Assembly: GCA_000004985.1 (NCBI GenBank)
Contig: GG738896.1
Reading direction: 5' to 3' (one strand)
DNA from: Naegleria gruberi
Lineage: Eukaryota
Length of the DNA stretch: 64,000 bases
Position numbers and translations under genes: made by a program. This document shows positions 22,816-64,000 of the stretch, piece after piece. The notes under the pieces are model-generated. The model ran no database searches. It saw only the letters and a list, made by a program, of their open reading frames with translations, and had not been told where the DNA came from. Numbering within the stretch: the stretch's first letter is position 1; each line of letters begins with the position of its first letter.

Positions 22816-24360
22816 ATGATCAATTCGGAACAGACAATGATTGATGATAATAATTTACTATCAACCACTCCACAATTTAAAATTATTTGGTTGGATGAGA
22901 ATTTCATGCACTTGCAAAGTTCCATTCACAAAATTAAATGTGTTCTTTTCAATGCCAGTGTTGACCAAAGAGATTTTAATGAATCTTTCGATCTAATTGA
23001 GTTGGAGAAACATGTTAGAAATTTAATATCGAATAATAATCATGTGATGGTAATTACGAGTTATAGTAAAGGAAAGGGATGCCAGGTTTTGGAATTGTTG
23101 CAAAGATTGAAGAGAAGTAATGAGGAGCAAGTAATTTATTCATGTGTCTATAGTGGAAGTGCTTTACGAAATGTAATGCTTCAGAATTTGTGCATTTTGC
23201 AATATGGAGCTGATTTTGTTTCGTCTTTGAATAATGCGAATGCCTTGTTGGAATTGGAAAGTTTCATTGCTCAAATCTATCAGAAATCATACTATCCAAA
23301 ATTAATGAAATATCTGAGCAGATTGGTATTCCAGAAAGATAATATGGAACATTTAATTTCGCCTACTAGCACTCTGGTACGATCTCACATGGTTCTTGAG
23401 GAAGAAATTGAAAGAGAAACACTCAGAGAACAAGGAAAGGAATATGATTGTAAATGGGAACACGTCCCTCTCAGAAAGATAGCTCACAATTTGCATTTGC
23501 AACAATCGGCCTGTCTTTCTCTCACTCACCGACCACTCGTTCAACAACCTCAATTCCTGGTCATGATTCAAACAGGAGCCATTAATCCACCTCACAAAAT
23601 GCATCAACAGGGATTTGAAGTTGCTAAGGAATTTGTGGAAAATTATCAAACTCTAATGAAGGCAGTGGAGAGTAAACCAAAGCTGAATAGAGAACTCTTG
23701 CAAAAGATTCTGAGACCTATCAAGGTGGTTGGATGCTACATGTCGCCAAGTCATGATGGATATATCAAGAGTAAGGCCTCCAAATACAAGTATTCCAGTA
23801 CTGTTCGATTGTATACTGCAACAGAGAGATTGACAATGTGTGCGTTACAAACACAAGATGATCCATTCACATGTGAATATCCTTGGGAGTCTTGCCAACC
23901 TAAATTTATATCCTTCTCTCAAGTGGGAAATACCTGTTCCACAATACTGAGAAGTGCCGAATGTCCAATTTCAATGCTCATGCCTAAAAATCCAAATACC
24001 AATCAATATCAAGATTCCTGCTCTTATTTGAGAGTTTGTTATACATGTGGAGCTGATTTGATTTTGAGAGCTGGCCTTAGAAGATTCGATTACTTTGAAG
24101 ATATGTTATCACTTGTGGTTGGAAGACATGGAGTTAATGTTGAGGAGGTTATGAAGTCAATTAATGAAGCTCATAACAACATGCCAGTTTTCTATGTAGA
24201 GATAGAGAATATGCAGGAAAATGCATTAAGCTCAACTGAAGTTAGAACTTGTTTGGAGAATATTGCCAAGAATGAAGATGTTAAAAATTCTAGAATGAGA
24301 TTGGAAAAAGTATTGGACCTTAGAGTTTTGGAATATATTATTAATGATTGCAAACTGTAA
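22816..24360 (+). CDS. NMNAT-family (nicotinamide/nicotinate mononucleotide adenylyltransferase-like) nucleotidyltransferase with a roughly 250-aa N-terminal extension of unknown function. 514 aa.
   Basis: 'FLVMIQTGAINPPHKMHQQGF' is the (H/T)xxH nucleotidyltransferase motif (GSFNPxTxxH). 'VGCYMSPSHDGYIKSK' matches the ISPVxDxYxKK motif. The C-terminal 'LSSTEVRTCLEN' matches ISSTxxR. Confidence 0.55.
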   Translation: MINSEQTMIDDNNLLSTTPQFKIIWLDENFMHLQSSIHKIKCVLFNASVDQRDFNESFDLIELEKHVRNLISNNNHVMVITSYSKGKGCQVLELLQRLKRSNEEQVIYSCVYSGSALRNVMLQNLCILQYGADFVSSLNNANALLELESFIAQIYQKSYYPKLMKYLSRLVFQKDNMEHLISPTSTLVRSHMVLEEEIERETLREQGKEYDCKWEHVPLRKIAHNLHLQQSACLSLTHRPLVQQPQFLVMIQTGAINPPHKMHQQGFEVAKEFVENYQTLMKAVESKPKLNRELLQKILRPIKVVGCYMSPSHDGYIKSKASKYKYSSTVRLYTATERLTMCALQTQDDPFTCEYPWESCQPKFISFSQVGNTCSTILRSAECPISMLMPKNPNTNQYQDSCSYLRVCYTCGADLILRAGLRRFDYFEDMLSLVVGRHGVNVEEVMKSINEAHNNMPVFYVEIENMQENALSSTEVRTCLENIAKNEDVKNSRMRLEKVLDLRVLEYIINDCKL

Positions 24361-24452
24361 TAATTTATGACTCAATAAAAAAACTGATTGATATTGAATT
24401 TCTCTCTGAGTTTTTGATAAATAATGAAAAATTAATTAAATATTGATAAAAA

Positions 24453-26174
24453 ATGCAGAAATTCAAAAGCAGCTGCCTATTCACAGCCAATCCATTTAAT
24501 AAATATTCCTCATCATTGGGAGGCTTATTTTTACAGCAGCATCATCATCAAAAGAATATCTTCCGAATCACCTCCTCTAACAATTTAAATAAGAATTATA
24601 GTCAGAATTTTAATCGGTTTGTTGGAGAGAACAAGCCTTTGGAAAAATCTCATCATGATGGTGCAGGAAAAGAATCATCAAATTTGGAGAAGAAATTAAA
24701 TAATGGAAAGAATGTGCATATGAGAAGGGAAAATCATGCAATGTTTATGGAAAGGACAAGAGAATTGAATGAGAGGAGGGATGAAATTATACCACTGCTG
24801 GCAAGTCCATTGAAAACTGAGGAGACCATTGAGAGATTTATGAGTAATTCAAAGAGGAATTTTACATTTGTCAATGATCAGGCCAAGGTGAATGTGTTAA
24901 AGGCCAAACTCTTGGAAAAGAAGGATGAATTGATTGTTTTTGAGGGAACGTATCATAACATGTTGGAATTATATAATGGATTGAAGAGGAAAATTTCAGA
25001 ATACTTGAATGAGAGAATTTCCAATGATTCGAGGCCTAAATCATTGAAGGAAAAGTATTTGGAGAATCACATTTCTAAACTCGAATTTACTGAAATAATG
25101 TCTAGATTTGGAGTATTGGGAAGAATGGTGAATGGCTCTTTGCAAGTTAATGTGAAGAAATTGCCAACTTTGGATTTGTTGGATAGACTTGGAAATTTCA
25201 CAATAGAACAATCTAGGAAAATGAAACCAGAAGTGGTGAGGAGCGAAATATTCATACCAATTCATACATTGATATCTTCAATCAAGTCGATGGATCAATG
25301 GGAAAAGAAGGGAATTGAATTGGAAACTGTTGAAGATGAGAAAGTTACAATTTATCCACATTTTGGAGTTTACATGCCAACAAGGAAGGAATTATTCACA
25401 TCATTAATCAAACAATCAGTCAATGAGCTTATTAATTCTAAATTGACAAATAGTAAGAAACCTAAATTGGAAATTTTGGATTTGGGCGCTGGATCTGGAG
25501 TGTTTTCAATCTATGTTTCCAAATTAATTTCAGAAAATGTTTCAGATTTGGAAATTAAATTTGTAGATATCAATCCATGGGCGTTGGAATGTTCAAAATT
25601 TAATTTTGAAAATAATTTTAAATCTTGCAATAACATTAGTGGAAAATATGTTCAAGTTGATTTGACAAGTGACAATAATCTGAATGAATCGAAAGATAGT
25701 AATTCTATTAATTTAATATTGTGCAATCCACCTTGGATATCCATAGAGAAGAAAGATTATGAACACATTCAGAATGAAAGGATGAAATTCGGTTCATTTA
25801 AAAATACAATTGATTTATCAATATTTGACACGGATTATGAATTTCTGGACCAATTTTTACATCTCCTCCAGAAATCACAAAACAAACAAACATTTGGAAT
25901 GCTGTTAGTGAGTAATGTTGGACATTTGGTAGGAGTGGAACAAATTTCAATATTGCAAGCTTTGGAAAAAAAGATAATAGGAACAAACATCAAGATTGAG
26001 AAGGTGGTTACTTTGAGGAGAGAACAGGGGTTGAATCAAGAATTGTCAGTGAAAAAGTATTTGGTCAATAATCCACTTTCCTCCAAGAGGAAGAAATCTC
26101 CTCATCAAAATTTAATTCAAGATACAAAGGCCAGTGAAGAAGTTTATTGTGTAAATCTCAGGAGAATTGATTAA
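24453..26174 (+). CDS. SAM-dependent methyltransferase with an NPPW motif (HemK/N6AMT/PrmC-like class I MTase). 573 aa.
   Basis: Motif I is 'ILDLGAGSGVFSIYV'. Motif IV is 'LILCNPPWIS' ((D/N)PP(Y/W), typical of amino-group, N6-adenine or glutamine MTases). Long N-terminal region of unknown function. Confidence 0.55.
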   Translation: MQKFKSSCLFTANPFNKYSSSLGGLFLQQHHHQKNIFRITSSNNLNKNYSQNFNRFVGENKPLEKSHHDGAGKESSNLEKKLNNGKNVHMRRENHAMFMERTRELNERRDEIIPLLASPLKTEETIERFMSNSKRNFTFVNDQAKVNVLKAKLLEKKDELIVFEGTYHNMLELYNGLKRKISEYLNERISNDSRPKSLKEKYLENHISKLEFTEIMSRFGVLGRMVNGSLQVNVKKLPTLDLLDRLGNFTIEQSRKMKPEVVRSEIFIPIHTLISSIKSMDQWEKKGIELETVEDEKVTIYPHFGVYMPTRKELFTSLIKQSVNELINSKLTNSKKPKLEILDLGAGSGVFSIYVSKLISENVSDLEIKFVDINPWALECSKFNFENNFKSCNNISGKYVQVDLTSDNNLNESKDSNSINLILCNPPWISIEKKDYEHIQNERMKFGSFKNTIDLSIFDTDYEFLDQFLHLLQKSQNKQTFGMLLVSNVGHLVGVEQISILQALEKKIIGTNIKIEKVVTLRREQGLNQELSVKKYLVNNPLSSKRKKSPHQNLIQDTKASEEVYCVNLRRID

Positions 26175-55915: not shown

Positions 55916-58142
55916 ATGTCCAACCCATCAATTGGCAGCAATCACACTGCCCAGAGACGTTTACTTGTACATTTAAATCATTTACTCCCTTCAAGTCAAT
56001 CAGCCGATCTGATTGAATCTAACGTTGTAAGAGGATTGACATCATACAATGATGAAGGTGATCGTTACAGTAGTATTTCCTATAATTATAAACATACGTT
56101 TGATGTTAGGAAAATGACTTCATTCCTCAGTCCTAGCTTTGATAAAAAGGAAATGTATAAATTCCTTGATACACCACTCATGCTTCATAAGAGTATCAAC
56201 ATTACTAAGGAAGAGGCAAGAGAAGTTGCCTTGAAACAAGTTATATTCCTATGTCAATCTGGATATTTCAATGTAACAGATATGAAAAAGAATCCTGAAC
56301 TGTTTCTTCAAAGAATGGAAGCTGGAATTATTGATGCCTCAATGAATGTCAAGTTGGGTGTTCAATTACTTCTCTTTGCTGGTAGTATTATGAACTTGGG
56401 TACCAAGAAACATCATGATTTATACTTGAAAAGAGCAGAAAGATGTGAATTACCTGGTGCATTTGCAATGACAGAAATTGAACATGGAAGTGAGTATTTA
56501 AATTGATATTATTTTGAATATTCTAATGTATTCTAAAGGCAATGTTAGAGAATTGAAAACCACTGCCATATTTGATGAACAAACAAATGAATTCGTCCTC
56601 AATACACCAAACAAGGGAGCTATTAAATGGTGGCTCGGAAATGCTGCTTGTCATGCTACAATGGCAACTGTTTTTGCTCGACTCATTTTGAAAGGAAAGG
56701 ATTATGGTGTTCATGCTTTTCTTTGTCCAATTAGAGATCCAAAAAGTATGGAATTATTGCCAGGTGTCATTGCAGGAGATTGTGGTGATAAGATTGGATT
56801 GCATGGAGTTGATAATGGATTCCTAGAGTTTGAAAATGTCAGAATTCCATACGATAATTTATTGGATAGATTTGGTGGAATTGATTTAGAAAGCAAGTCA
56901 TACAAATCTGAATTTGATAGTGCAGGAAGAAGATTTGCAGCAGTTCTTGGAGAATTAATTACTGGAAGAGTTACCATTGTAAGTGGATCATTGAATTGCA
57001 GAAGAGTTGGATGCATGATTGCCACACGTTATGCAAGTCAGAGAACTCAATTTTCTGCAGGTAAAGAATTCCCAGAACAACCAATTCTCGATTACAAATC
57101 TCACAAAACAAGATTAATGCCAATAATTGCCTCTTCTTACGTTTTTGAGTTTATTAAGAGAAATGTTGTGAAAAAGTATTGTAGATTACATTTGGAAAAG
57201 GTTTCAGATGATGAATTGCAAGAAATTCATGCCCTTTCTGCTGGTGTAAAAGCTGCAATGTCTTGGGATACTCAAACTCATTTGCAAACATTGAGAGAAA
57301 TGTGTGGTGGACATGGTTATTCTGCATATAATCGTTTGGGAACTCTTCGTAATGATCACGATGTTTTGAAAACATTTGAGGGTGACAATACTGTATTAAT
57401 TCAACAATTAGGTGGATATTTATTGAAAGAATTCAGCAAGCAGTTTAGTGGTGAGCTGATATCAGATTCAGTTCAGTATATTAGAAAGCAAGTTGGTGGT
57501 ATGGCTCAAAGAAATCCACTCATTACCAGATTGTCAAGTAAGAAACATTTGAGAAACTCTGATTATCATTTGCAAGCTTTCGAGTATAGAACTGCAAAAT
57601 TATTACAAGAGTGTGCATTGGAAATTAATGTAAACAAGAAGAAACAAGGTATTTTCCGTGCATTCGGTGAATCTCTCCCTAAATTAATTAGATTAGGTAG
57701 AGCCTATGTTGAGCAAGTTGCCTTACACGATTATTTACATGGCATTGAACAAGTTCAAGATCCAGAACTTAAACCTATTTTGAAAATGATGGGAGACTTG
57801 TATGCTTTGGATATTATTTCTAAGAATGTTGGAGACTTTATTGACCTCATCAAGAAGAACAAACTCTCAGCCATTCACGATATGGTTGAATGGTTGTGTG
57901 AAGAATTGAGAGTTCATGCTGTTTCTCTTGTTGACTCATTTGGATTTCCTGATTTTCTATTGGATGCACCAATTGCTAAGAGAGATCATGGTAATTATGT
58001 CCATCACATTCTCAATTATTCTCTTACAAGAAATAAGGGTAATTCAGATTTGATTGGTAAAATGCAAACTGATGTAGTTATGAAGAGAAAGAACGTTGCA
58101 TCTGATGAAGATGTTAATCAAGTGATGGAAATAAATTTGTAA
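55916..58142 (+). CDS. ACOX: Acyl-CoA oxidase (peroxisomal ACOX family). Two exons, join(55916..56489, 56539..58142), with a 49-nt intron.
   Basis: Exon 1 is ORF 55916..56506 and ends '...PGAFAMTEIEHG' at the donor A|GTGAGT at 56490. The TTCTAAAG acceptor at 56538 joins in phase 1 to ORF 56514..58142, giving '[37 protein letters not shown]' (ACOX '[29 protein letters not shown]...IKWW'). The downstream FAD/acyl-CoA dehydrogenase signature is 'GGHGYSAYNRLGTLRNDHDVLKTFEGDNTVLIQQ'. Confidence 0.75.
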
Positions 58143-58233
58143 ATCTTGGCACTGTATTTAAATGGGAGTTTCAAACTTTCGAATGTTTTGTAAAACTCCC
58201 TGATTCTTCTGAACTCTGACAACCTTCAGATCC

Positions 58234-58400
58234 AGTGTGGGCCAACCAACTCTAAAAAATATGATAAAATACAGACCAACAGTATTATTCAATGTCTGTA
58301 TACCTTCAAAACATTAATATACTACCATCGTTTTTTCAATGTCCAAAATAAACTCGTTTTTTTAATGTTTACAAACTTTAGCATTGGTTGGCCCACAGTA
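58234..58400. repeat. About 16-bp GC-rich inverted repeat pair (CAGTGTGGGCCAACCAA ... TTGGTTGGCCCACAGTA) flanking about 135 bp. A MITE-like element or hairpin in the 3' flank of the acyl-CoA oxidase gene.
   Basis: The arms at about 58234-58251 and 58384-58400 are perfect reverse complements over 'TGTGGGCCAACCAA'. The interior is AT-rich and non-coding. Confidence 0.25.
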
Positions 58401-59362
58401 TCTAGAGCACATGTCGCTTCATCTAATAGCAAAATCTTTGTGTTGTGAAACAAACTTTTTTTACTTTTATCTGGTCAACTGCAATTTGCTTTCCTCGCTG
58501 ATAGGAGTTTCACTAACGAATGAAATAAATTAAACACAAAATCAAAATCATAAGAACAAATAGAAATAAGAATAAATTTGAGTAGGGCGAAGGTAGTTTT
58601 GATCTACCGCCTCAAGGCAATGGTCAAGTGTAAATGCATGACAACCTTGCGTTTCTCCCGATTGAAACTATTCACCCTAATATATTAGAGGGAAAATTAA
58701 ACGAACACTGTCAAGAAAAAATAACCACTATTTTTTATTTTGGTTCAACAATAAATATTTCAAATATATTTCTCCAAAAGACAATCGTTGATAAACCAAT
58801 GGATATTACTCTGCGCTCTAAAAAATACGCAACCATTTGGCAAACGGTGAAAAATCGCATAGGTTCAACTTAATTCTCTACAAAATGACGTTGTAATATT
58901 TGCATTTAATTCAGTAATTGTAAAGTATATCGTATTTGAATTGGTGTTAAACTTGTTAATTTTCTATTGCTTAATAGTAGTGAGTTGAATAGTTGTGAAA
59001 CTACCTTTAATTGCGGTGCGCACTTATTCCGACATCATTAAGAGCATTAAGGAATAAGTAAATGGTATTTATTAAAAGGTGGCCGTGCCAATACTCACTC
59101 TTTGTTAGAGGTTGTTAGATTTCAACCATTCAATGGTGTTTTCATCTTCAAGATCAATGTCTTCTTTTTCAAATTCAATAACAACAATATTTTCAAATAG
59201 TTCGGGATGATTTTTAACTTGTTCTCTTGTTGGAGTGTTGATGAACAATGCATCAAACAATTTATGATATGAACACATAATATGATCCAATGAATAAATT
59301 GTTAAATTATTACTCTTCTTTGATATTTGTAACTTTTCTTTGAGTGTGTGGGTTTGGTTCTA

Positions 59363-60981
59363 CTTGGGTTTGGGTTGGTGGGGTTTGGGTGAGTTTTATA
59401 CACTTTCATACAATAGAGTGATATTGAAATGTACCCTTTGATATTTCTGGATGGGTAGCATGATTTAGTGATGATTCCGACAATAAAAATCATATATTGT
59501 TCATATAATTATCAAGATATTGTATAATTTATTAAATATAAAGTGGGTAATATTGAATATTCTTTGTAGGAGCGGAAGCACTTATTCTTGTCAGTTGGAG
59601 TCAGTATTGTATTAAGGTTCATTTTAGGAATCTTAAAAAAATACAATAACAACTCACCTGCATCAACATCATCAAGTATATCATCTATATTGAATATAAA
59701 GCAACAGCAAGAATGTATGGAGTTGATTCAACATGATTATTGGATTGGAGAGATGGCAAAAATATTACTATTATTGTATTTGTCAAGTTGGAAGTACCCT
59801 CAGGATCATCAGCGAGGTTTCCTCTTCATCTCTTCTTGTTAGAGAGGTTTTTCATCCACAAGATGGTCATCTTCTTCATTGAAGAGGTTGCTTTATTATT
59901 AAGCACTGAGAGAAGCGTTTTTAAATTTTATTTTGATGAAATAAATCAAAATTTATTACGCACAACACATCAAGAACAACAACAGCAACATGCTGATACA
60001 CCATCATCATCACTGGGTGAATTGGCCATCATTGTTGTATAATTTCTTGGAATTTATTGGATTAACAGTAAATTTTGGAATTACTCTCCTATTGAAGATG
60101 GAACATCAGCAACATCACCAAGATGATCTTCAATTGGATAGTATTGTTTTCAGAAGTGGTTTCACGCTTTTTGTGGGCTCTTTCAACATACCATCATCAG
60201 AATGGTCATCATCTTGTTGAGGGAAGATGTTCAACCTTGTTTTGGAAAGTAGAATATCTTACCACCACTCTATTCTCCTATTTTGATTGGATTGGTGGAG
60301 GTGCCACCACCTCTTCATACATTGGGTTTGGGTTGGTGGGGTTTGGGTGAGTTTTATACACTTTCATACAATAGAGTGATATTGAAATGTACCCTTTGAT
60401 ATTTCTGGATGGGTAGCATGATTTAGTGATGATTCCGACAATAAAAATCATATATTGTTCATATAATTATCAAGATATTGTATAATTTATTAAATATAAA
60501 GTGGGTAATATTGAATATTCTTTGTAGGAGCGGAAGCACTTATTCTTGTCAGTTGGAGTCAGTATTGTATTAAGGTTCATTTAAGGAATCTTAAAAAAAT
60601 ACAATAACAACTCACCTGCATCAACATCATCAAGTATATCATCTATATTGAATATAAAGCAACAGCAAGAATGTATGGAGTTGATTCAACATGATTATTG
60701 GATTGGAGAGATGGCAAAAATATTACTATTATTGTATTTGTCAAGTTGGAAGTACCCTCAGGATCATCAGCGAGGTTTCCTCTTCATCTCTTCTTGTTAG
60801 AGAGGTTTTTCATCCACAAGATGGTCATCTTCTTCAATTGAAGAGGTTGCTTTATTATTAAGCACTGAGAGAAGCGTTTTTAAATTTTATTTTGATGAAA
60901 TAAATCAAAATTTATTACGCACAACACATCAAGAACAACAACAGCAACATGCTGATACACCATCATCATCACTGGGTGAAT
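59363..60981. repeat. Subtelomeric direct tandem repeat with a 959-bp unit. There are at least 1.7 copies, the second cut off by the assembly gap. Each unit begins with a degenerate telomere-like tract (GGGTTTGGGTTGGTGGGGTTTGGGTGAG).
   Basis: 59365-60323 and 60324-60981 are near-identical, offset exactly 959 bp. An example is '...gagttttatacactttcatacaatagagtgatattgaaatgtaccctttgatatttctggatgggtagcatgatttagtgatgattccgac...' in both copies. Only single-base differences were seen, for example tttaggaatc versus ttaaggaatc. Confidence 0.7.
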
Positions 60982-62796
60982 NNNNNNNNNNNNNNNNNNN
61001 NNNNNNNNNNNNNNNNNNNNNNNNNNNNNNNNNNNNNNNNNNNNNNNNNNNNNNNNNNNNNNNNNNNNNNNNNNNNNNNNNNNNNNNNNNNNNNNNNNNN
61101 NNNNNNNNNNNNNNNNNNNNNNNNNNNNNNNNNNNNNNNNNNNNNNNNNNNNNNNNNNNNNNNNNNNNNNNNNNNNNNNNNNNNNNNNNNNNNNNNNNNN
61201 NNNNNNNNNNNNNNNNNNNNNNNNNNNNNNNNNNNNNNNNNNNNNNNNNNNNNNNNNNNNNNNNNNNNNNNNNNNNNNNNNNNNNNNNNNNNNNNNNNNN
61301 NNNNNNNNNNNNNNNNNNNNNNNNNNNNNNNNNNNNNNNNNNNNNNNNNNNNNNNNNNNNNNNNNNNNNNNNNNNNNNNNNNNNNNNNNNNNNNNNNNNN
61401 NNNNNNNNNNNNNNNNNNNNNNNNNNNNNNNNNNNNNNNNNNNNNNNNNNNNNNNNNNNNNNNNNNNNNNNNNNNNNNNNNNNNNNNNNNNNNNNNNNNN
61501 NNNNNNNNNNNNNNNNNNNNNNNNNNNNNNNNNNNNNNNNNNNNNNNNNNNNNNNNNNNNNNNNNNNNNNNNNNNNNNNNNNNNNNNNNNNNNNNNNNNN
61601 NNNNNNNNNNNNNNNNNNNNNNNNNNNNNNNNNNNNNNNNNNNNNNNNNNNNNNNNNNNNNNNNNNNNNNNNNNNNNNNNNNNNNNNNNNNNNNNNNNNN
61701 NNNNNNNNNNNNNNNNNNNNNNNNNNNNNNNNNNNNNNNNNNNNNNNNNNNNNNNNNNNNNNNNNNNNNNNNNNNNNNNNNNNNNNNNNNNNNNNNNNNN
61801 NNNNNNNNNNNNNNNNNNNNNNNNNNNNNNNNNNNNNNNNNNNNNNNNNNNNNNNNNNNNNNNNNNNNNNNNNNNNNNNNNNNNNNNNNNNNNNNNNNNN
61901 NNNNNNNNNNNNNNNNNNNNNNNNNNNNNNNNNNNNNNNNNNNNNNNNNNNNNNNNNNNNNNNNNNNNNNNNNNNNNNNNNNNNNNNNNNNNNNNNNNNN
62001 NNNNNNNNNNNNNNNNNNNNNNNNNNNNNNNNNNNNNNNNNNNNNNNNNNNNNNNNNNNNNNNNNNNNNNNNNNNNNNNNNNNNNNNNNNNNNNNNNNNN
62101 NNNNNNNNNNNNNNNNNNNNNNNNNNNNNNNNNNNNNNNNNNNNNNNNNNNNNNNNNNNNNNNNNNNNNNNNNNNNNNNNNNNNNNNNNNNNNNNNNNNN
62201 NNNNNNNNNNNNNNNNNNNNNNNNNNNNNNNNNNNNNNNNNNNNNNNNNNNNNNNNNNNNNNNNNNNNNNNNNNNNNNNNNNNNNNNNNNNNNNNNNNNN
62301 NNNNNNNNNNNNNNNNNNNNNNNNNNNNNNNNNNNNNNNNNNNNNNNNNNNNNNNNNNNNNNNNNNNNNNNNNNNNNNNNNNNNNNNNNNNNNNNNNNNN
62401 NNNNNNNNNNNNNNNNNNNNNNNNNNNNNNNNNNNNNNNNNNNNNNNNNNNNNNNNNNNNNNNNNNNNNNNNNNNNNNNNNNNNNNNNNNNNNNNNNNNN
62501 NNNNNNNNNNNNNNNNNNNNNNNNNNNNNNNNNNNNNNNNNNNNNNNNNNNNNNNNNNNNNNNNNNNNNNNNNNNNNNNNNNNNNNNNNNNNNNNNNNNN
62601 NNNNNNNNNNNNNNNNNNNNNNNNNNNNNNNNNNNNNNNNNNNNNNNNNNNNNNNNNNNNNNNNNNNNNNNNNNNNNNNNNNNNNNNNNNNNNNNNNNNN
62701 NNNNNNNNNNNNNNNNNNNNNNNNNNNNNNNNNNNNNNNNNNNNNNNNNNNNNNNNNNNNNNNNNNNNNNNNNNNNNNNNNNNNNNNNNNNNNNNN
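60982..62796. other. Assembly gap of 1815 N.
   Basis: Run of n characters. The flanks suggest it hides further copies of the 959-bp subtelomeric repeat. Confidence 0.95.
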
Positions 62797-63024
62797 TAAA
62801 AGAGGTCAAGGAGAGATTTCAAAACATAAAATAAATTATATTTTCGAGATGTACTATTGATTTCCAATCGATTGATATGTATTTTGTAGATTGAGGATGT
62901 GGTTCTTTATTTGAAGAGTTCCTCCTTAACTTACCAAGTAAACCCTGATATTTCACCCTTTACCTTACTGAATGATGGAATATTCACCAAAATATCTGTA
63001 AACTGAACCATATATATTATTAGA

Positions 63025-63500
63025 GATGTAGAACATGATGGTGATGTTTCATTGAGTGGTCATTTTCCAGAAATTCATCCATGTCCATAGTTGACTAGAT
63101 GGTATGAAAGGGATGAAATCATGAATATGTATGTTAAAATAAACTTTATATTCTATCTCTACTCATCAAATGGAGCATTTTCATGTATATATTGTTGATT
63201 GAAGTGATGTATTTGATAGACTTGATCTGACCTGTCAATCCTTAAAGTCAACCTTATAAAGTCAACCATTATCTTCCTATAGTTCCATTTCTTGTTCTTA
63301 TGATATGAAATTGAATTCTACATCATTATAGATCATGTACATCATGTTGGTAAAGTTTCAATAGTGGTCCTTTTTCAAGATTTCATCCTTTTCATCATAG
63401 TTGACCATATGATGGTTGAGGGAAGAAATCTTTAAATATGAAAGTGAAAATAAATTTGATATTCGATGTTTACTAATCAAATGGAACATTTTCATATCAG
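63025..63500. repeat. Telomere-associated degenerate tandem repeat, about 310-bp period, 2 copies, immediately proximal to the telomere.
   Basis: 63025-63200 and 63335-63500 align with about 70% identity. An example is 'tcattttccagaaattcatccatgtccatagttgactagatggtatgaaagggatgaaatcatgaatatgtatgttaaaataaactttatattctatctctactcatcaaatggagcattttcatg' versus 'tcctttttcaagatttcatccttttcatcatagttgaccatatgatggttgagggaagaaatctttaaatatgaaagtgaaaataaatttgatattcgatgtttactaatcaaatggaacattttcat'. Confidence 0.4.
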
Positions 63501-63548
63501 GATTTAATATGTTTTGATGAGAAACTCAAAAGTTATAGTTGACCTATT

Positions 63549-64000
63549 GGGTTTGGGTTGGGTTTGGGTTTGGGTTGGGTTTGGGTTTGGGTTTGGGTTT
63601 GGGTTTGGGTTTGGGTTTGGGTTTGGGTTTGGGTTTGGGTTTGGGTTTGGGTTTGGGTTTGGGTTTGGGTTTGGGTTTGGGTTTGGGTTTGGGTTTGGGT
63701 TTGGGTTTGGGTTTGGGTTTGGGTTTGGGTTTGGGTTTGGGTTTGGGTTTGGGTTTGGGTTTGGGTTTGGGTTTGGGTTTGGGTTTGGGTTTGGGTTTGG
63801 GTTTGGGTTTGGGTTTGGGTTTGGGTTTGGGTTTGGGTTTGGGTTTGGGTTTGGGTTTGGGTTTGGGTTTGGGTTTGGGTTTGGGTTTGGGTTTGGGTTT
63901 GGGTTTGGGTTTGGGTTTGGGTTTGGGTTTGGGTTTGGGTTTGGGTTTGGGTTTGGGTTTGGGTTTGGGTTTGGGTTTGGGTTTGGGTTTGGGTTTGGGT
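63549..64000 (+). repeat. Telomere: about 75 tandem GGGTTT (TTTGGG) hexamers with occasional GGGTT variants. The G-rich strand is oriented toward the window end.
   Basis: Perfect hexamer periodicity to the last base of the window. The TG-rich strand runs 5'->3' toward the terminus, as expected for a right chromosome end. Confidence 0.85.

Follow-up and report, generated by a model that had tools for sequence, protein, structure and literature searches.

The 64,000-nucleotide stretch of Naegleria gruberi contig GG738896.1 analysed here (hereafter the window) terminates in a telomere, and shortly before it lies a 958-bp tandem repeat whose visible units each begin with a telomere-like tract. 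We conclude that this element is probably a non-coding subtelomeric tandem repeat carrying telomere 'seed' tracts, set on a former chromosome end and grown by unequal recombination. The position of the repeat, the identity of its border tracts and a gene cut off exactly where telomere-like sequence begins are among the observations behind this conclusion.

The window has a GC content of 34.6%, contains a single run of N, and under the standard genetic code yields open reading frames (ORFs) of up to 2613 amino acids. Its last bases consist of TTTGGG hexamers, with two GGGTT variants close to the base of the array, and TTTGGG has been reported as the candidate telomere repeat of N. gruberi (Fulnecková et al. 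2013, PMC3622300). As the window terminates in (TTTGGG)76, it represents a chromosome end whose G-rich strand is the plus strand, read 5' to 3'. The last intact gene before this end encodes a peroxisomal acyl-CoA oxidase (ACOX), the next-best matches of which are found in other Naegleria and in Willaertia (70-77% identity). A ciliate source, considered because Paramecium has TTTGGG-type repeats, is rejected by the long standard-code ORFs, the GC content and the 100% match of ACOX to N. gruberi, and a dictyostelid source by the TTAGGG or TAAGGG telomere repeats of that group. Three features frame the region:

56514-58139, plus strand: ORF of ACOX, the last intact gene (ending at 58142), 100% identical to the NCBI N. 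gruberi peroxisomal acyl-CoA oxidase.
60982-62796: assembly gap of 1815 N.
63547-64000, plus strand: terminal telomere (TRF: period 6, 76 copies of TTTGGG, 99% matches), reaching the last base of the window.

Past the end of ACOX at 58142, the final 5.4 kb carry no intact gene. They contain, in this order, a fragment of an ABCB-type transporter gene, a gene remnant, the 958-bp units, the gap, a diverged repeat of about 310 bp, and the telomere. This region is a short (about 5.4 kb) N. gruberi subtelomere in which gene fragments are combined with two repeat families that are unrelated to each other. The gap conceals the remainder of the 958-bp array together with its junction with the distal ~310-bp repeat.

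The visible part of the array consists of two units:

59364-60321, plus strand: tandem unit 1, 958 bp, composed of a 30-nt tract and 928 nt of non-telomeric DNA, 33% GC.
60322-60981, plus strand: tandem unit 2, partial, comprising the first 660 nt and ending at the assembly gap.

The units follow each other head to tail (1.7 copies visible) and meet at a distinct junction. They are 99.7% identical over the 660 comparable nucleotides, the only differences being a T/A substitution at unit position 262 and an additional A near position 60838. Such near-identity points to either a recent duplication or ongoing homogenisation. The initial annotation had described two adjacent near-identical units of 959 bp starting at 59363, the second running into the gap, and had regarded them as subtelomeric. 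The duplication, its interruption at the N run and its location are all borne out, as the units lie between ACOX and the telomere, 2.6-4.2 kb from the true (TTTGGG)76 array. The limits of the unit required correction: a tandem repeat does lie there, but homology begins at 59364 (TTGGG...) and not at 59363, and the period is 958 nt, becoming 959 nt past the 1-nt indel. With the gap length as estimated by the assembler, the whole array would amount to about 2 to 3.6 units. No further copy was detected by blastn within the window, and the unit shows no similarity to the left flank, to the gene remnant or to the tail that leads into the telomere. Searches outside the window were equally negative, with no blastn match against plasmids, no match in two metagenome pattern scans and one prokaryote-genome pattern scan, and no relatives in viral, metagenome or prokaryote collections.

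Telomere-like sequence occurs at the border of each unit and immediately proximal to the first one:

59345-59363, plus strand: degenerate telomere-like tract, part A (TGTGTGGGTTTGGTTCTAC), 19 nt, abutting truncated codon 60 of the gene remnant and lying outside the tandem repeat.
59364-59393, plus strand: telomere-like tract, part B, copy 1 (TTGGGTTTGGGTTGGTGGGGTTTGGGTGAG), 30 nt, containing a canonical G-quadruplex motif.
60322-60351, plus strand: telomere-like tract, copy 2, of the same sequence as copy 1 and immediately following the end of unit 1 (...CTTCATACA followed by TTGGG).

Both units open with GGGTTTGGGTTGGTGGGGTTTGGGTGAG, and the perfect telomere-like stretch starts precisely at the repeat boundary. 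Part B and the terminal telomere at 63547 share their first 15 nt. A search for this 15-mer (TTGGGTTTGGGTTGG) that allowed up to two mismatches located it at both unit starts (59364 and 60322) and within the terminal telomere but nowhere else, always on the plus strand, for a chance expectation of 0.12 matches. Outside the telomere, the remaining 63.5 kb contain just two canonical G-quadruplex motifs, namely this tract and its copy. Both junction tracts derive from telomere sequence, with their G-strand running 5' to 3' toward the chromosome end, and the earlier observation that the units begin with a telomere-like tract rests on firm ground, an identical 30-nt tract being present at both starts.

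Because the two junction tracts are identical through their degenerate part (GGTTGGTGGGGTTTGGGTGAG), they are copies of one tract and not separate telomerase products. Recurrent healing or recombination had been suggested as the source of the array; since the tracts are duplicated copies, recurrent healing is not needed, and what is retained of that suggestion is a single healing-type event at the proximal boundary, where a gene is truncated. The proximal junction reads GGTTCTAC joined to TTGGGTTTGGG, as compared with CTTCATACA joined to TTGGGTTTGGG between the units.

The truncated gene at the proximal boundary is the following:

59108-59344, minus strand: 5'-truncated coding remnant, homologous to residues 60-138 of the 139-amino-acid orphan protein P0121, with its stop codon at 59105-59107.

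The tblastn alignment of the remnant with P0121 is gapless over 79 amino acids (51% identity, 77% positives, E 2e-26). Homology sets in 22 codons before the remnant's first ATG, the ATG-initiated ORF being restricted to 59105-59290 on the minus strand (61 amino acids). In an exhaustive phmmer search of 1.84 billion representative proteins, this 61-amino-acid ORF had P0121 as its single match (E 1.5e-11). The codon score of the remnant, 0.27, is clearly coding-like, held-out coding windows reaching 0.14+/-0.13 and non-coding 'shadow' ORFs -0.22+/-0.11. P0121 homology stops at 59344, and telomere-like sequence (TGTGTGGGTTTGG...) runs from 59345, for 19 nt and then for 30 nt more. A gene cut off at added telomere repeats is the usual signature of telomerase-healed chromosome breakage. 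The sequence suggests that the 5' part of this gene was lost at the site of telomere-repeat addition, through a breakage healed by telomerase, and we propose the part A tract (59345-59363) as the healing junction. As for the missing N-terminal 59 amino acids of P0121, nothing above shuffled controls was found in the unit, the tail or the left flank. A candidate resemblance between minus-strand ORFs of the unit and the P0121 N-terminus (NLTN...LP...SNN...ALYS) was rejected, with a score of 39 for 38.3+/-5.2 in shuffled sequences.

P0121 is encoded on a 653-bp ENA metagenome contig (ERZ12289978, NODE_67637; hereafter L002), where its gene is intact and intronless (170-589). As the homologue lacks introns, a tract-carrying intron in the window is unlikely. 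L002 itself carries a telomere-like tract at positions 100-133, AACCAAACCCAAACCCCAACCCAACCCAAACCC, located 36 nt upstream of the P0121 ATG, on the C-strand and in the same orientation to the gene as in the window. The order of variants is very similar in the two tracts (CCCAAACCCCAACCCAACCCAAACCC in L002 and CCCAAACCCCACCAACCCAAACCC in the window). Beyond the L002 tract lie 99 nt of unrelated DNA, and neither the unit nor the tail is similar to the L002 flanks. These data imply that an internal telomere tract adjoins a P0121-type gene in a second organism. A tract found beside the same gene in two lineages, at different distances, fits a gene located at the boundary between core and subtelomere, where ends have been repeatedly lost and rebuilt, but a conserved tract of greater age, with a later deletion in N. 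gruberi, would account for the pattern equally well. A 9-mer (TGTATGAAG) that follows the C-rich tract is present both at the unit junction (60309-60321, minus strand) and around the P0121 start codon (L002:165-178); there is no similarity past it, and it may be due to chance.

P0121 had no relatives but itself in a collection of 5.8 billion proteins, its family has no Pfam match and no relatives in viral or prokaryote collections, and its AlphaFold model (pLDDT 39.7) is too poor for a fold search. The N. fowleri orthologue of ACOX is internal on a 697-kb contig (L001, VFQX01000044, 142150-164555). Both this locus and a metagenome contig (L003) share ACOX alone with the window, both sides of the gene having been checked, so that synteny is uninformative on the chromosome break. 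Around ACOX, N. gruberi and N. fowleri thus show no conservation of gene order.

The unit itself is, from its sequence, apparently non-coding DNA. As the initial annotation had reported, several ORFs of 75-100 amino acids lie inside it (84, 100, 76, and 75 amino acids on the plus strand, 100 being the longest). Their codon scores (-0.14 to +0.06) fall between those given above for coding windows and for 'shadow' ORFs. Six-frame searches of the unit detected no Pfam domain, in particular no reverse transcriptase or helicase, and no match to PDB sequences. A cmscan of positions 57000-64000 (E<=1) returned no credible Rfam family, no hammerhead and no telomerase RNA, the only matches (sR52, U4atac, and snoR100) being weak and at chance level. 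The concatenated ORFs of 58150-63546 also gave no match at E<=1 in a word-indexed search of the 5.8 billion proteins, a search that is weak because it missed the 51%-identical P0121, later recovered by exhaustive HMMER. The sR52 match, to a C/D-box snoRNA family, is found in each unit (59807-59862 and 60765-60820, minus strand; 22.6 bits, E 0.21, far under the gathering score); it arises from adjacent UGAUGA and CUGA boxes and is probably fortuitous.

Taken together with the gene remnant, the border tracts suggest the following history for the array. The chromosome would formerly have ended at or near 59345, after a break within the small gene had removed its first ~59 codons and a telomerase cap had left TGTGTGGGTTTGG... 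beside codon 60. A block of 928 nt would then have been joined distally, for example by break-induced replication or by recombination primed on telomere repeats, making the former telomere internal. This block would itself have been capped, its distal end ...CATACA preceding TTGGGTTTGGGTTGG, the 15 nt with which the telomere begins today. Indeed, the end of unit 1 (...CTTCATACA) meets TTGGGTTTGGGTTGG in the same way as the tail end (...TTGACCTA) meets the present telomere, which suggests that the block once had both a distal telomere and a proximal tract. Unequal exchange between sister chromatids or homologues, at these flanking tracts, would have produced the tract-block-tract-block order now observed, and continuing exchange or gene conversion would keep the copies 99.7% alike. 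The older ~310-bp repeat and the present telomere lie distal to the array. By analogy with the Sultan elements of Chlamydomonas, the orientation of the tracts would suit telomerase seeding after end loss, their G-quadruplex motifs could stall replication forks and promote recombination, and the array may serve as a disposable buffer between genes and telomere.

Several points weigh against this history. The visible evidence consists of 1.7 copies at one chromosome end, and the order of array, ~310-bp repeat and telomere depends on the assembler's unverified scaffold join across the gap. The tract located 36 nt upstream of the P0121 ATG could be an older feature of the gene itself, in which case the truncation would be a deletion. 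Finally, the apparent lack of coding capacity relies in part on the word-indexed protein search that missed P0121, and the codon score of the 100-amino-acid ORF (0.056) is ambiguous.

A more general process is possible, and among the alternatives it is the one that we find least improbable, though still unlikely: Naegleria ends may grow by stacking, blocks being added repeatedly on telomere repeats and re-capped by telomerase. Addition would proceed through recombination or through a non-autonomous retroelement priming on telomeres, and internal tracts would represent successive former ends. This idea is worth testing because a tract lies on the telomere side of the same gene in both sequences (at -36 nt in L002 and at codon 60 in the window), with further DNA beyond both. 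In that case, the 958-bp unit would be specific to chromosome ends throughout the genome.

The tract might instead belong to the P0121-like gene as a conserved cis element (promoter, insulator or protein-binding site), the duplication having used this recombination-prone sequence as a breakpoint. The L002 tract, upstream of the only known homologue in the same orientation and with nearly the same order of variants, would be readily explained in this way. However, the tract in the window replaces the first 59 codons, with no start codon after it, no such tract is found near the approximately 40 other genes of the window, and a real telomere is located 4 kb away. With two family members only, conservation statistics are impossible. 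We hold such an origin to be quite unlikely.

A telomere-attaching retroelement is less plausible again. The units would be non-autonomous copies priming reverse transcription on the G-rich overhang, and serial additions would leave the tracts between them. Among endonuclease-deficient, EN(-), Penelope-like elements, Athena and Coprina carry reverse-complement telomere repeats at their 3' end, which faces the centromere (PMC8557442). The C-rich strand of each Naegleria unit likewise ends 3' in CTCACCCAAACCCCACCAACCCAAACCCAA on the centromere side, and the presence of extra telomere-like DNA at the proximal junction, and not at the inter-unit junction, is expected if the chromosomal part varies. 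Unlike Athena and Coprina, however, the unit has no reverse transcriptase (or other domain, in six frames) and no hammerhead motif, no hammerhead ribozyme or other Rfam match lying beside the tract at E<=1. It also lacks a poly(A), both visible copies begin at the same nucleotide, so that there is no 5' truncation, and relatives are absent from the viral, metagenome and prokaryote collections.

We attach equally little weight to an assembly artefact, in which the Sanger assembler would have laid a single-copy block or two alleles in tandem, the gap marking its failure. The contig does break inside copy 2, and the two differences between copies could equally be allelic or sequencing errors. Nevertheless, the unit junction (...GGTGCCACCACCTCTTCATACA joined to TTGGGTTTGGG) differs from the left boundary (...GGGTTTGGTTCTAC joined to TTGGGTTTGGG), and one linear copy cannot yield a head-to-tail junction. 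Moreover, the usual artefact is repeat collapse, which under-counts copies rather than over-counting them.

Least probable by far is a structured RNA encoded by the unit, such as a telomerase RNA with the minus-strand AACCCAAACCCAA as its template: this strand does contain a 13-nt perfect complement of two telomere repeats, and the unit folds somewhat better than shuffled sequences (z -2.3 on the minus strand and -3.2 on the plus strand, 20 shuffles), but this modest folding signal is shared by both strands, Rfam contains no matching family, the tract is continued by degenerate telomere-like repeats, which suits a decayed telomere and not a bounded template, and the location is a tandem array at a chromosome end.

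Non-coding subtelomeric tandem repeats with telomere-like borders, as we propose for Naegleria, have a precedent in green algae. The closest described system is Sultan in Chlamydomonas reinhardtii, which consists of ~850-bp non-coding subtelomeric tandem units with telomere-like sequence at one border (PMC8287924). Sultan arrays expand by local duplication, and their telomere-like sequence has been proposed to act as a healing seed after fork collapse (PMC8287924). The Naegleria units resemble them in size (958 versus ~850 bp), in being apparently non-coding, in the near-identity of copies and in the telomere-like seed at the unit border, here with its G-strand toward the chromosome end. The two systems differ in that Sultan is present at 27-31 of 34 ends and lies directly against the telomere (PMC8287924), whereas one end is visible in the Naegleria window and the ~310-bp repeat intervenes. 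The Naegleria tract is also longer (30 nt, with four G-runs), and the sequences of the two repeats share no similarity.

The initial annotation had compared the repeat with yeast Y' and Plasmodium TARE elements. In Saccharomyces cerevisiae, Y' elements are 5-7 kb long, encode a helicase, and occur as head-to-tail copies with short internal telomere tracts, expanded by recombination. The analogy is sound for the internal telomere-repeat tracts that separate tandem copies in both cases, but it does not extend to coding capacity, as the Naegleria unit is shorter than 1 kb and contains no helicase and no credible ORF (longest 100 amino acids; Pfam and PDB negative). Plasmodium TARE1-6 are non-coding blocks spanning tens of kb, with an order conserved on all ends. 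Naegleria similarly shows blocks of different period (958 bp and ~310 bp) stacked between the telomere and the first genes, but internal tracts at unit borders are not a defining feature of TARE. More generally, interstitial telomeric sequences derived from healing or block exchange mark, for example, the boundaries of human subtelomeric duplication blocks. The Naegleria tract is comparable, being short, degenerate, oriented toward the end, placed between unique and distal duplicated DNA, and adjacent to a truncated gene; it differs in having also become part of a tandem unit.

The architecture is of an ordinary, known kind, and it reveals no new mechanism. It is new for N. gruberi as far as the literature was searched: we found no description of Naegleria subtelomeres or of chromosome-end structure in Heterolobosea, only the TTTGGG candidate repeat (PMC3622300). 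The window provides one worked Naegleria subtelomere, which is short and combines two repeat families, gene fragments and an internal tract at the very point of a gene's truncation. With it, a distant lineage joins those in which seed-carrying subtelomeric tandem units recur (green algae and yeast). Complete assemblies can be probed with the 928-nt block, both junctions and the ~310-bp repeat, and the unit would gain in importance if it were found at many ends or turned out to be a mobile element that primes on telomeres.

Two further features complete the subtelomere, one on each side of the array:

58325-58474, minus strand: decayed fragment of an ABCB-type ABC-transporter nucleotide-binding domain, with a Walker B motif (KILLLDEATCALDT) and an in-frame stop upstream.
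62797-63546, plus strand: ~310-bp repeat, about 2.4 diverged copies over 750 bp, in register at 62828, 63136, and 63447, adjoining the telomere.

The ABCB fragment was recognized by phmmer against PDB (E 1.7e-8 to 1e-5 to ABCB1/ABCB4), six-frame Pfam searches being negative. A 21-nt inverted repeat is found here, its arms (58236-58256 and 58377-58397) being 90% complementary and 120 nt apart. It repeats the '(T/S)VGQP(M/T)LK' of the fragment, which indicates that the latter was partly duplicated and inverted (partial copy at 58233-58256, plus strand).

The ~310-bp repeat is a second, older, decayed subtelomeric repeat, with no similarity to the 958-bp unit. Its copies are 77.6% identical over 165 nt in blastn, with blocks at 73-84% and an overall identity of 52-65% after MAFFT alignment. 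They end in CATAGTTGAC, and the telomere starts directly after TATAGTTGACCTA. At its proximal side, the repeat may extend into the gap. Within this region, positions 63243-63272 hold 2.1 copies of a 14-15-bp tandem repeat (TAAAGTCAACCATTA).

On the scale of the whole window, GC skew computed in 2-kb windows shows local peaks at 24001-26000 (+0.25) and 56001-58000 (+0.19) over a mostly slightly negative background, and both peaks coincide with plus-strand ORFs.

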